From: Eledone cirrhosa
Taxonomy: Eukaryota
Direction of reading: 5' to 3'
Length of the DNA: 64,000 bases
Assembly (NCBI GenBank): GCA_964016885.1
Contig: OZ024752.1
Coordinates: 45,942,001-46,006,000 of the forward strand
Shown here: positions 4,356 to 63,286 of the stretch, piece by piece
Position numbering within the stretch: the stretch's first letter is position 1
How the letters are laid out: each line of letters opens with the position of its first letter
Notes under the pieces: model-generated
Told to the model about the DNA's origin: nothing
The model's input: only the letters and a program-made list of their open reading frames with translations
The model's database searches: none
Program-made: the position numbers and the translations under genes

Positions 4356-4406
4356 GGCTTTCTGATGATTTCTCCCGAATGAAACAGTTCTAGACCTGTA
4401 GAAGCC
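4356..4406 (+). ncRNA. Type I hammerhead ribozyme (family B)
   Basis: ggcttt-CTGATGA-t ttc tccc gaa t-GAA-ACAG ttctagac CTGT-A-gaagcc. Stem I ggcttt/gaagcc, stem III ACAG/CTGT, predicted GUA cleavage after 4400, U.U at 10.1/11.1. Confidence 0.8.
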
Positions 4407-4602
4407 TTTTCTATATTAAATATATATATATATGTGTGTGTGTATGTTTATGTGTGTGTGTGTGTATGTTTATGAGTGTGTGTGTGTGTTTACATATATA
4501 TATGTGTGTGTGTGTGTGTTTATATATATATATGTATGTATGTGTATGTGTGAGAGTGTGTGAGAAGAAGCGAGGATACCCTAGTCACATTAACAAGAGT
4601 AT

Positions 4603-4720
4603 CCCGCCGAGGTTAACTTTGCCTTTCATCCTTACGGGGTCGATAAAATAAAGTACCAGTAGTACACTGGGATAATTGCTGGCCTTGTGCCAAAAGTAGA
4701 AACAATTATTATTATTATAT
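4603..4720 (+). mobile_element. 5'-truncated octopod tRNA-derived SINE
   Basis: cccgccgaggttaactttgcctttcatccttacggggtcgataaaataaagtaccag...gtagaaacaattattattatt. Confidence 0.85.
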
Positions 4721-5247
4721 TTTATCCTTGTTACCCAAATTTCTTCGCCTCTTGTAAGGATGATGAAAAAAAATACCAAATCTCCATCTTGATAAACTGG
4801 TATATGAAGATATTATTATTTCGCTATATTTGAAAAGTATGATATTATGTGACATCCTGTCATATCCTTATGAAATAACATGTCATTTATTGTCATATCA
4901 TTTGCGGTTTTTTGGGTTTTTTTTAAAGTATTATCTGATATTGTGTCAAGTTAGTATATCTAAAATATATCATGAAAAACGCCATCTATCTGATAAATGT
5001 CTGTATTGCTGCTACTGTTGTTGTTGGCGTTTAGTCCCTGGAGGGCCCTAAACGAACACATACATGATCAAAATCATTCTACCATGACTCTCTAGTATGC
5101 CATGTATTTATATGCCATGTATATTTTGTAAAGCTCCCGGTGGGCTCTGGATAAGCAGGTACTAATGAAATGCGTTCTAACCAATAATCACCCTCACTTA
5201 ATTCCAGTCAGTGTAATTAACACTATGTTATCTAATGCGACCTTCAT

Positions 5248-6128
5248 GTGTGTGTGCGTGTGTGTGTGTGTGTGTGTGTGTGTGTGTGTGTGTGTGTGTG
5301 TGTGTGTGTGTGTGTGTGTGTGTGTGTGTATGAATCTGTGTGTATGTATCTGTCTGTGTGTGTGTGTGTATATATGTGTGTATGTATCTGTGTGTATGTA
5401 TCTGTGTGTGTGTATGTATCTGTGTGTGTGTATGAATCTGTGTTTGTGTGTGTATGTATCTGTCTGTGTGTGTGTGTGTGTGTGTATATATGTGTGTATG
5501 TATCTGTGTGTATGTATCTGTGTGTATGTATCTGTGTGTATGTATCTGTGTGTGTGTATGTATCTGTGTGTGTATGAATCTGTGTGTATGTATCTGTCTG
5601 TGTGTGTGTGTGTGTGTATATATGTGTGTATGTATCTGTGTGTATGTATCTGTGTGTATGTATCTGTGTGTATGTATCTGTGTGTGTGTATGAATCTGTG
5701 TTTGTGTGTGTATGTATCTGTCTGTGTGTGTGTATGTATCTGTGTGTGTGTATCTGTGTGTATGTATCTGTGTGTGTGTATGTATCTGTGTGTGTGTATG
5801 AATCTGTGTGTGTATGAATCTGTGTGTATGTATCTGTCTGTCTGTGTGTGTGTCTGTGTGTATATATGTGTGTATGTATCTGTGTGTATGTATCTGTGTG
5901 TGTGTATGTATCTGTGTGTGTGTATGAATCTGTGTGTGTATGAATCTGTGTGTATGTATCTGTCTGTCTGTGTGTGTGTGTGTGTGTGTGTGTGTGTATA
6001 TATGTGTGTATGTATCTGTGTGTATGTATCTGTGTGTATGTATCTGTGTGTGTGTATGTATCTGTGTGTGTGTATGAATCTGTGTGTGTATGAATCTGTG
6101 TGTATGTATCTGTCTGTGTGTGTGTGTG
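5248..6128. repeat. (TG)n and degenerate tgtgtatgtatc repeat
   Basis: Visible simple repeat. Confidence 0.9.
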
Positions 6129-6621
6129 AAATAAAACTACTGCTGATGATGAGAATCTACAATAATAAAAAAAAAAATCTCTCCAAGATGTCTGACGATG
6201 GATGCATCGCAGTAAACTTGGGGAAAAAAAAGATGCTATAAAAACAATTTTGATGACGATAAATATGTCATTTCATTAACTACTTCCATAGATTTAGATA
6301 GAATAAGCAACAACTCTACAAAATTATGAATTAAAAAGAGATCTATGAAGTTCTTTTCCGCTTTGTTTGTTATGGTCGTCTGCGTTGTAAGATGTTTGTA
6401 CTCAAATATCAAATAGATATTATAAAGGAGGGGGAGAAAGGAAGAAGTCAACGGTTTTTAGTTGTTGTTGTTGTTGTTGTTGTTGTTTTTGTGTGTGTTT
6501 CTTCTGGTTTTTTTTTGGTTTTTTATGGTTTGCAGTTTTTATTTTATTTTATTTTATTTTATTTTATATTAAAAGAAATTTTCCAAGTCAATCGTTATCA
6601 GTTAAGAATGTATGTGTGTGT

Positions 6622-6998
6622 ATTATATATATATATATATATATATATATATATATATATATATATGTATATATATATATATATATATATATGTATATAT
6701 ATATATATATATGTATATATATATATATATATGTATATATATATATATATATATGTATATATATATATATATATGTATATATATATATATATATATATAT
6801 ATATATATATGTATATATATATATATGTATATATATATATATATATGTATATATATATATATGTATATATATATATATATATGTATATATATATATATAT
6901 ATATATATATATATATATATGTATATATATATATATATATATATATATATATATATATATATATGTATATATATATATATATGTGTGTGTGTATATAT
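6622..6998. repeat. (TA)n microsatellite with periodic G
   Basis: Visible simple repeat. Confidence 0.95.
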
Positions 6999-60026: not shown

Positions 60027-60191
60027 CCTTATTTCCCGGCGTGGAAGACGCTACTTTTCTCCCCCTAAAATAAGTCTCAAAAATCTACCATGCAACCTGG
60101 AGGCCGAAGATTGTTTATTATTTTTCAAATTTTGGGTTGTCAAAATTAGGGTGGGTCCTCGATGAAGCGTCTTCGGCGCCGGGAAATACGG
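60027..60191. mobile_element. Tc1/pogo-type MITE
   Basis: TIR ccttatttcccggcgtggaagacgct / agcgtcttcggcgccgggaaatacgg; TA flanks. Confidence 0.75.
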
Positions 60192-61863
60192 TAATTACAC
60201 CAATGGACTAAGGGGTATATATATATATACATATATATATATATATATACATACAAAGGTTTATTGATATTTATTTTATAACATCAAAGAAGAAGAAACA
60301 CATGCCGGGTATGTTAACCAACCCGACTGCTATTTCTACGGCGTTACTTAGGGGCAGTTTTATAATTGATGGATGCCGGAGCCCGTCTCATCTCCAGGTC
60401 TGAGTACAGCAAATTTATTGTAGAGAAATATAGATAGCTTGGAAGTGAGACAGAGATATAGAGGAAGAATTGTCCCCAATATATGACTAGTACATTTTTT
60501 ATCAACCTTGAATGGATGAAAGACAATGTTGACTTAACGATAGATAATCTACTTTCTAGTTTTAGACACAAGTCAAGCAATTTCAAAGTATTTAACTACT
60601 GGTACTTTATTTTATCGACCCCTGAAGGAGCAGTGGCGAAGTTGACCTCGGCGGGATTTGAACTCAGAACCTAACGATTGATAAAAATCGATAAAATTCG
60701 TATATGCAGGATACATTCATACATATAGTTTCTTTTTAAGTTAGAGATCTTCTCTCAGATATTGTAATATTATATGGCATATAGAGAGAAACTAACGACG
60801 ACTGACTCATCAGCTTCCAACTTATGCACATACACACATGCACGCAATCACACACACACATGCACGCAATCACACACACATGCACGCAATCACACACACA
60901 CATGCACGCAAGCACACACACACACATAGAAGCACATGCACACTCACTCACACACTCTCTCTCTCTCTTACTCTCTCTCTCTCTCGAGAGAGGAATAAAT
61001 ATCCGGACGGTTGTTCATATATTGTCAAAGTTCTTTCGTCACACATTCTGTGACCTCGACGAAAGAACTTTGACAATATATGAACAACCGTCCGGTTGTG
61101 GAACCAACCAACCAACCGGACATTTATAAAAAAAAATTTAAATTTATAATTTAATTTATAATAAATTAGAGTGAAATATCTGGTGCGTGTGTTTCTTATT
61201 GGCAACATGACCCTCCCAAAGTATAACAATATATATATATAGTGTAAATAATATGCAAGCTGGTGTACGTGTGATGATTACAAAGTGTCTCTATTGTTTC
61301 GTGTGTAAACATGTATTTAAAATGTGACAACATTCTTTCCAAGAAAAACTATATAGCTACATCACTCACACATCCTTTCCATGTACACACACACACACAT
61401 ACATATATATACACATATATACACACACATCCTTTCCATGTTTGACACCACACACACATACACATATATACACATATACACACACACACCTTACCATGTT
61501 TGACACCACACACACATACATATATATACACATATACACACACACACATACATATATATACACATATACACACACACACCTTACCATGTAATATGTTGCA
61601 ACGTCTGGCACTATATCATATATACATGCATTTAGTTGAATGAAATATACGTTAATATGGTGTAAGGTGGTGTACTACCATACTTCAACTTCATCGCTAC
61701 ACCACACTGTATGAATTAATATATACCCCACATAAATATAGGCATATGTATACATTTTTGGGGGACACCCTGTGTGTGTGTGTGTGTGTGTGTGTGTGTG
61801 TTTATATATATATATATATATACGCTATTAAACAAATGGAAACTATATTTATAAAACCATATC

Positions 61864-61929
61864 TATTTCATTATACATATTTCAGGGATACCATATTAAA
61901 AATATGGCATGCCTTCATCAGATAAAATA
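61864..61929 (-). ncRNA. Type I hammerhead ribozyme (family G)
   Basis: tattttat-CTGATGA-agg c atgccatatt ttt aatatggtat c cct-GAA-AT atgt AT-A-atgaaata; 8-bp stem I, long stem II. Confidence 0.8.
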
Positions 61930-62042
61930 CAATATATAAGCAGTTTTATAAATAAATTTGACGTATATATATATATATAGCTGTCGAAACGGCCGGAGCT
62001 CAGCTGTCGCGGCCTTGACTCTACTATATATATATACGCATA

Positions 62043-62121
62043 CAGGGTGTCCCCAAAAAATGTATACACACTTTGATTAAAACACTGTTGAAGTGTGTAT
62101 ACATTTTTTGGGGACACCCTG
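62043..62121. mobile_element. 79-bp mariner-type mini-MITE (other copies ~21127-21200, 42297-42392, 57358-57443, 62232-62308, 62362-62440)
   Basis: Perfect 31-bp TIR cagggtgtccccaaaaaatgtatacacactt with a 17-bp spacer. Confidence 0.88.
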
Positions 62122-63235
62122 CCTGTCTATGTGTGTGGTGTGTATATACCAAAAATGTATACATATATATATATATATATATATATATATATATATATAT
62201 ATATATATATATATATATATACACACACACTAGGTGTCCAAAAAAATGTATACATACTTCAACAGCATTCTAATGAGTGTGTATACATTGGGGGGGGGGT
62301 GCATCCTGTCTGTCTGTGTGTGTGTGTGTTTTATAATATATATATATGTATATATGACACACAAGGTGTTCCAAAAAATGTATACACACTTCAACAGCAT
62401 TCTAATCAAAGTGTGTATACATTTTTGGGGGAGACATCGTGTGTATATATATATATACAAACATATATATATACACACACACATTATATATATATATATA
62501 TATATATATATATACATATATATATACACACACACACACACATATATATACACAGATACACACATATATATATATACACACACATATATATATATACACA
62601 CACATATATATACACACACACACATATATATATATACACACACACACACACACACACATATATATATATATATATATATATATATAAATATACACATATA
62701 TATATATAATATATACACATATACATTTATATATGACACATTCAGTAAGAAGAATGCTAGCCTGACACACAGACAGAAAGATGAGCCGTCTAATAAGATA
62801 TTAGAGAAATGTCGAGATAGGGGATAGAGATATGTTAAGACAAGGATATCTTAGGTTAAAACAACAGATACTTTTGTAACACCTCCCAAGGTGACAGTAA
62901 ATATATTTTTGGTTAAGAGACGAAAGAGACAGCACAAGACAGTCCAATTGTCTCCTAAACAGTACATCTCCTCCTCTTCCTTACACCCCTGCTTAGTTGA
63001 TTCATACCTATCCCTGCTACCACCTCTTTCAATCATATAATACATTTTATATACTAACTAGCACAGCCTAACCTATGTAGAAACGAAAGTTAAAACAGCT
63101 GGCGAAGTTATACGAGGACAATAAACGTATATAAATATATAGTTATATATATAACAAATTAAAACCTTAAAAGAAAAACTGTTAAAGAAAATGTTTAGAC
63201 CAAGAAATAAGTTATATATATTTAATATAGAAATG

Positions 63236-63286
63236 ACTTCTACAGGACTAGAACTGTTTCATTCGGGAGAAAAATCATCAGGAAGC
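63236..63286 (-). ncRNA. Type I hammerhead ribozyme (family B)
   Basis: gcttc-CTGATGA-tttttctcccgaat-GAAACAG ttctagtc CTGTA-gaagt. Confidence 0.75.

Follow-up and report, generated by a model that had tools for sequence, protein, structure and literature searches.

Hammerhead motifs with a U.U mispair in a 64-kb stretch of the Eledone cirrhosa genome as probable ends of a Hydra-type Penelope-like retrotransposon

Introduction

The hammerhead ribozymes carried by Penelope-like elements (PLEs) have a function that was called "still unclear" (bioRxiv 10.1101/2021.04.23.441226); those of metazoan PLEs are described as dimer-dependent and slow (PMC4209133; PMC6765202). Here we analyse the hammerhead motifs in a stretch of 64,000 nucleotides from Eledone cirrhosa (assembly GCA_964016885.1, contig OZ024752.1, positions 45,942,001 to 46,006,000), referred to below as the window. 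An earlier, sequence-only reading had noted about seven copies there of a type I hammerhead with a U.U mispair at the base of stem II, and had proposed an active monomer comparable to the retrozymes. In our analysis the copies are probably dispersed, mostly 5'-truncated ends of a Hydra-type PLE, the ribozyme of which would lie at the 5' end of a capped mRNA, with its cleavage damped and with uncut RNA serving as the template for new copies.

The Hydra clade of PLEs is marked by a DKT motif, a CxCX5C motif, one open reading frame (ORF), an endonuclease that lacks a CCHH motif and a length generally below 3 kb (bioRxiv 10.1101/2021.04.23.441226; PMC8557442). Its published members (Craig et al. 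2021, PMC8557442; Penelope-1..9_HM, Hydra-1/2_aJap and Hydra-1_cRog were compared) share with the family described here the type I architecture, the CUGAnGA-U...U-GAAA core (in 14 of 25 listed families), a 4-nt loop II, in several cases an ACAG/CUGU stem III, (TA)n targets, and the DKT and CxCX5C marks. That count of families with the U.U is our own, from File S2, where the two Us are placed in core columns. The E. cirrhosa family differs in its loop III (8 nt with a CUAG palindrome, against 0-3 nt in the File S2 table), in an A/U-rich 3-bp stem II that can slip onto the GAAA, in a unit of about 5-6 kb instead of the published length below about 3 kb, and in its approximately 30,000 motif copies. 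The supplement of PMC8557442 does not contain the string gaatgaaacag, and Hydra-1_oBim has a different hammerhead.

Three other systems are instructive. For the Poseidon PLE PAc of Anolis, the available account (PMC11167929) reports unprocessed RNA as the template, a hammerhead that needs protein, in vitro insertion unaffected by catalytic mutants, and no reads ending at the cut site. It resembles our family in the two internal starts of reverse transcription that would make the tail, in its AT-rich targets and in the hammerhead at the junction of the pseudo-long terminal repeat (pLTR) and the ORF, but it belongs to another PLE clade, its hammerhead overlaps the ORF start, its tail is 30-40 bp against about 68 nt here, and that account holds no TATA or cap evidence. 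HHR_Amex2 of the axolotl is likewise of type I, with U.U at the base of helix II and a very high copy number (about 60,000); its monomer was 22% cleaved in 1 h and its dimer efficiently (PMC7229834). In contrast to our family, it consists of tandem 350-bp non-coding repeats with circular RNA and a shorter helix III. Lastly, the same mismatch, U10.1.U11.1, is the best tolerated mispair in natural hammerheads (Perreault et al. 2011, PMC3088659), where it is a rare variant with no tie to PLEs in the text available. The U.U, put forward earlier as a novelty, was thus already in print in PMC3088659, PMC7229834 and File S2 of PMC8557442; the part worth following is the anatomy of start site, cap and uncut template. 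A literature search of incomplete coverage returned nothing on this PLE family, and no paper on a TATA box, cap or start site at a PLE hammerhead, most subscription literature lying outside its reach.

Results and Discussion

A constrained type I hammerhead

In the 3.0-Gb genome we counted 26,985 matches to the exact motif, against 0 in the control. With stem II left free the number rises to 29,781, of which 28,725 (96.5%) carry U10.1.U11.1, so that the family-wide U.U proposed from the window holds for the genome. A G-C subfamily at 10.1/11.1 was sought among the genome matches and not found: both positions had changed in 15, to G-C in 2, about what independent decay yields.

To describe the variation, 64 hammerhead-spanning copies were chosen via a downstream anchor, independently of the core. 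The core is intact in 44 of them; N7 and four positions of loop II are highly variable, and changes are no more than scattered in the core, in loop III and along stems II and III. A variable loop II over a kept UUC/GAA, noted before in the window, is confirmed across copies. Stem I exists in paired subfamily versions (AGAUUC/GAAUCU, AGCUUC/GAAGCU, GGCUUY/GAAGCC), with a covariation score of 0.181 that was reached in 0 of 500 shuffles, a figure that is not a probability since the 13 rows are related. Altogether 88.5% of the alignment cells are paired, with compensatory changes confined to stem I; stems II and III are uninformative in this respect because they are nearly invariant. The stem I covariation first seen in the window therefore stands between subfamilies, though the window's own example is weaker than was stated, because the 5' strands at 4356 and 51052-51058 sit at inversion junctions. 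The pattern of variation is, to judge from the alignment, that of a hammerhead selected in source elements and decaying neutrally after insertion. Decay of the copies, named earlier as a refutation, is no refutation for a transposon, since dead copies decay even when the ribozyme of the source element is under selection.

With N7 and loop II varying and core, stems and loop III fixed across subfamilies, the earlier claim of a real type I hammerhead family is sustained: as far as sequence can tell, the motif is such a hammerhead, with three helices and open at stem I. The pair usual at 10.1-11.1 of this type, mostly G-C, is replaced by U.U, which does not disqualify the motif because U.U is a published tolerated variant. 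Rfam returned no hammerhead family for two copies at E values up to 10, and none among the matches listed for the window (150 of 296).

The carrier element

Upstream extension of the copies reached fragments of reverse transcriptase (RT) and endonuclease. A search with the endonuclease gave 150 scored matches, 13 of them with a 758-codon open frame, and those 13 were examined together with 7 other loci. In all 13 the hammerhead lies 175 nt before the ATG of a 713-aa ORF, and in 12 a second hammerhead follows 2.4-3.9 kb past the stop. The order in full copies is hammerhead, 136-nt leader, ORF, a microsatellite-rich 3' region of about 2.4-3.9 kb, TATA box and second hammerhead. The ORF encodes an RT with DKT (in place of DKG), YRDD, a CxCX5C linker plus, at the C terminus, a GIY-YIG-like domain with a YIG motif; DKT and CxCX5C are present in 13 of 13. 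Insertion into (TA)n, pLTRs, inverted 5'-truncated copies and a tail are all found, as in the Hydra clade. The unit exceeds the length general in that clade because of the microsatellite 3' region; a sister family, at L036, has only about 400 bp after the ORF. The window's own subfamily reaches the ORF start at one of 30 loci (L277, 67% identity over aa 1-114). The protein has 1,404 homologues at about 40% identity, and the element is present in contig sets from the sequencing runs of two organisms; a sequence search of the PDB gave nothing useful for it. By these marks the family would be a new, very abundant and recently active member of a known PLE clade.

Non-LTR retrozymes were considered as the carrier and rejected: those are head-to-tail tandem repeats of 170-400 nt with no ORF, and our copies lie scattered or face each other head-to-head. 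The comparison with retrozymes made earlier falls accordingly, the copies being truncated pieces of an ORF-bearing PLE. As a separate observation, about 3 kb of mixed TA/TG microsatellite travels with the element and varies in length (L118:1625-5265, minus strand); this 3' region may supply part of the genome's microsatellite load.

Among metagenome loci with a protein about 40% identical, 31 of 76 have a hammerhead. Thirty-five hammerheads of such relatives, near-duplicates included, comprise 13 with U.U, 11 with G-C, 5 with A-U, 2 with G-U, 2 with A.A and 2 that are bulged, and the U.U with the same core persists where the stems differ. On a quick midpoint-rooted tree of 34 rows, built from unnamed relatives, U.U stands on several branches; it needs 5 changes and G-C 2, and we therefore claim no ancestral state at 10.1/11.1. 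Hydra-type PLE proteins are also abundant on short contigs of public metagenomes (L288-L363), likely as animal DNA carried along.

Ends of the copies and the start of transcription

Copies end preferentially at two 3' positions, both in (TA)n: counted from the cleavage site, +21 is the end point of 22 copies among 102, and +89 that of 24. On the upstream side, TATA(A/T)ATA is found 35-39 nt before C3 in most of 51 distinct copies that extend far enough (range 30-43), across subfamilies with differing spacers. From such a placement the start would be expected at the first base of stem I, some 30 nt further downstream, and no room for a loop 1 would be left on the 5' side. Among 27 distinct relatives, 12 have TATA(A/T) 35-44 nt before C3, a window that was picked after inspecting the data; other windows of 10 nt gave 1-4, and shuffles 2.65, with 0 of 2000 reaching 12.

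The 5' ends were examined in the first 90 of 19,318 tail-anchored matches, a sample independent of the core. The 5' end falls at -10 to +3 from C3 in 42 of the 90, with a mode at -6, and 37 of these 42 are joined to an inverted arm; it falls at the cleavage site in one, and within +34 to +39, at most 6 nt from that site, in five. Likewise, 46 of the 64 hammerhead-spanning copies stop between the TATA box and C3. Head-to-head pairs joined at stem I number in the thousands: 3,684 are separated by at most 12 nt, and looser anchors add 1,274 with a gap of 13-19 nt, many of which still end at -5/-6 with filler. At position -7 the element itself carries C; G stands there in 1,868 copies, and A or T in 416. 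Thirty G loci were inspected, of which 18 were not templated by the inverted arm and none was scored as a substitution, against 6 of 30 inspected A/T loci. In LINE-1 and SVA, a 5' G that has no template is interpreted as a copy of the cap (PMC4859970), and by analogy the G before the start is likely a cap trace. Because copies start at stem I with an extra G and rarely at the cut site, capped, uncut RNA appears to be the template of the commonest copies.

These ends suggest a course of events. The TATA box would set the start of RNA polymerase II at the first base of stem I; the element's protein would nick (TA)n and prime reverse transcription internally at +21 or +89, as has been shown in vitro for another PLE (Anolis, PMC11167929). 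Reverse transcription begun on the 5'-most copy would proceed for 65-135 nt before leaving the template at its capped end, frequently with one base added opposite the cap, and such run-off would explain the small solo and inverted copies of the window.

Predicted folding and the question of cleavage

Four features would hold cleavage of the RNA slow: the U.U, slippage into a UUUC/GAAA helix, the weakness of stem III and a hairpin further downstream. Cleavage would then probably depend on the protein of the element or on two RNAs pairing through the CUAG loop. In nearest-neighbour predictions the stem III hairpin alone has -1.4 kcal/mol, against -11 to -15.6 kcal/mol for a self-duplex through the CUAG palindrome of loop III (5 correctly framed, palindrome-bearing copies). 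U10.1 permits a slipped pairing of UUUC with the core GAAA, a helix predicted to be inactive, which outweighs the active register of stem II in most natural copies folded; it vanishes when G-C is placed at 10.1/11.1 in silico. With 60 nt of downstream leader, the predicted probability of stem I is at most 0.13 in 9 of 12 copies. In most subfamilies the UAGA[A] of the cleavage site is predicted to pair with a [U]UCUA lying some 6 nt further downstream (L125:2447-2480 and equivalents); this hairpin would compete with stem I, and it adjoins the +21 end.

The foremost rival is the earlier proposal of an efficient stand-alone monomer, with intact intronic or intergenic copies cutting host or retrozyme-like RNAs. 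The core is invariant between subfamilies, the 4-bp stem III with its 8-nt loop can form a hairpin, fungal PLE hammerheads with a long helix III function as monomers (PMC4209133), and the mispair is, as said above, the best tolerated one at its position (PMC3088659). Yet the copies span the cleavage site and end at the presumed cap, the active stem II register has a predicted probability of only 0.00-0.32 in all natural copies folded, the palindrome of loop III is conserved where loop II is free, and head-to-tail repeats are absent; within the host gene described below, the core is damaged in 3 of 3 sense copies and 2 of 4 antisense copies, numbers too few to test. With the weak predicted stem III added to these points, efficient cleavage as a monomer is unsupported, and we consider this rival unlikely.

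A second possibility is a motif that has lost its cleavage activity and persists in the retrotransposon as a protein-binding or promoter element. Uncut templates would fit it, as would the catalytic mutants and the missing cut-site reads of Anolis (PMC11167929). The variation, on the other hand, tracks catalytic constraint, with N7 and loop II free, the core fixed and stem I compensated, and the U.U core persists in relatives of 40% identity with different stems, so that we hold this explanation to be quite improbable. Efficient cutting with re-ligation or circularisation of the products, so that copies look uncut, might draw on the two hammerheads that flank each full unit and on the circular intermediates proposed for PLEs (PMC4209133) and shown for retrozymes (PMC7229834), but we give it marginally less credence still: circular RNA lacks both a cap and a 5' end, yet the presumed start, with an extra G, is where the commonest copies stop, and therefore only re-ligation of the capped fragment would fit.

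Several points weigh against the reading we prefer, that of a damped ribozyme at a capped 5' end and uncut templates. It is built on integrated DNA copies and on predictions, and such copies show which RNAs were copied, not what fraction was cut. About 3 of the 42 boundary calls at stem I were wrong by eye (about 5 true ones had been put into the neighbouring bin), the peak of 5' ends could owe something to pausing at stem I, and 12 of the 30 inspected G loci could derive from the inverted arm; the window for TATA in relatives was, as said, chosen with the data in view, and the Penelope element of D. virilis has a TATA-less internal promoter (PMC2377424). The folding figures ignore tertiary contacts, for 2 of the 6 correctly framed copies the active fold did not return with G-C in silico, and an 8-nt loop III, unlike the 0-3-nt loops of File S2, permits a monomer hairpin. 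The carrier is assigned to the Hydra type by its ORF marks, with a tree of unnamed relatives only; the Pfam GIY-YIG match to the ORF is weak and below cut-off (E 0.012; 1e-5 for the homologue P0054), and Pfam returned no RT family for it.

A wider interpretation is offered tentatively, as one more likely wrong than right: the Hydra-clade hammerhead could be a cap-removing fate switch that occupies the mRNA's first 45 nt. RNA left uncut, with its cap, would be copied into DNA, and cleavage triggered by RNA dimerisation or by the element's own protein would decap the mRNA; decapping might then serve autoregulation, or a change to cap-independent translation by analogy with fungal viruses, in which cleavage by 5'-untranslated-region hammerheads can drive such translation (PMC13725137). 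The clade-wide U.U would be a selected damper, and thousands of fossil complementary DNAs in the genome would record the switch. The family offers intact ORFs, a 46-nt ribozyme at what seems a sharp start, two candidate sites for the start of reverse transcription and evidence across the genome as to which form of the RNA was copied, and makes the question why PLEs carry hammerheads directly testable with short RNAs and one protein.

The copies in the window

The core pattern has 5 matches in the window against 0.28 expected by chance, and a profile built from 30 natural copies finds exactly the seven loci of the sequence-only reading, all at the positions it gave, with six more in 200 kb of flanks. 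The core (C3-A9, G12-A14, A15.1-U16.1, H17) is intact at four of the seven, and core and all three stems together at only three (4362+, 51051-, 63281-); the description as complete hammerheads applies to these and fails for 46409+, 51059+, 57238+ and 13388+. All are probably passive insertions of the element.

The intact copy at 4356..4419 (plus strand) has stem I at 4356-4361/4401-4406, C3 at 4362, U10.1.U11.1, a predicted cut between 4400 and 4401 (GUA) and loop III UUCUAGAC, and terminates in (TA)n near +19; joined head-to-head at its stem I is an inverted arm (4282..4355, minus strand), an element 3' tail that ends near +89 after the cleavage site. In the second insertion, an inverted tail arm (13298..13389, minus strand) meets the 3' half only of a hammerhead (13388..13420, plus strand; ACAG...GAAGCC, with a mismatch in stem III). 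The copy at 46409..46463 (plus strand) begins at C3 and so is missing the 5' strand of stem I, with stems II and III and the core intact. A head-to-head pair follows, with an intact-core arm at 50992..51058 that lies antisense to the host gene (minus strand; C3 at 51051, a single bulge in stem I GACU(U)UC/GAAGUC, and the palindrome lost from loop III UUCUUGUC) and a damaged arm with a tail at 51059..51157 (plus strand, sense to the host gene; G8U, stems II and III broken). A further damaged copy, also sense to the host gene, carries the full +89 tail (57238..57358, plus strand; U4C, G8C, no 5' strand of stem I). The longest copy (63220..63431, minus strand, C3 at 63281) comprises element 3' region, TATA box and hammerhead, with 2 extra U after A9 and a 5-bp stem I, and terminates in (TA)n near +19; its TATAAATA box at 63309..63316 (minus strand), 35 nt before C3, is a putative promoter.

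The host gene is an ankyrin-repeat gene with its first coding exon at 50386..50482 (plus strand) and its next in-frame exon about 45 kb beyond, outside the window. The four copies said earlier to lie in the presumed Caskin intron 1 do lie in the first coding intron of this gene, a putative Caskin-like one. The intronic location looks like ordinary insertion, given a density of 13 copies in 264 kb.

Other repeats and hammerhead-like sites

Another Hydra-type PLE family of the same genome, with an 821-codon open frame and inverted repeats, is found at L034:2129-4591 (plus strand); about 5650-5720 of the same locus there is a different hammerhead, with a long stem II starting with A-U and a palindromic AUGCGCAU helix III. 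Some 3.4-5.1 kb upstream of window base 1 lies a Hydra-type PLE ORF fragment on the minus strand (L048, 41% identity over aa 171-683). Within the window, an unrelated hammerhead-like core, CUGAAGA-U-CC...GG-U-GAAAC, also with U.U and with no clear stem I, occupies 2783-2806 (minus strand), and a common TGTATTTTATCTGAnGA-type motif at 3001 (plus), 13466 (minus) and 61921 (minus) points to a second family of repeats that carries the 5' half of a hammerhead. A near-perfect 104-nt inverted repeat between (TA)n runs, at 9009-9112, is probably the head-to-head insertion of another element. Broken ORF pieces at 26572-28510, 18121-18519, 9422-9866 and 63667-63894 (all minus strand) resemble, by eye, RT/endonuclease ends of non-LTR retrotransposons. 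An interspersed repeat of about 130 bp, similar to a short interspersed element, is very abundant, with more than 20 matches in the window, including those at about 4601-4711, 16342-16473, 22385-22518 and 40988-41106.

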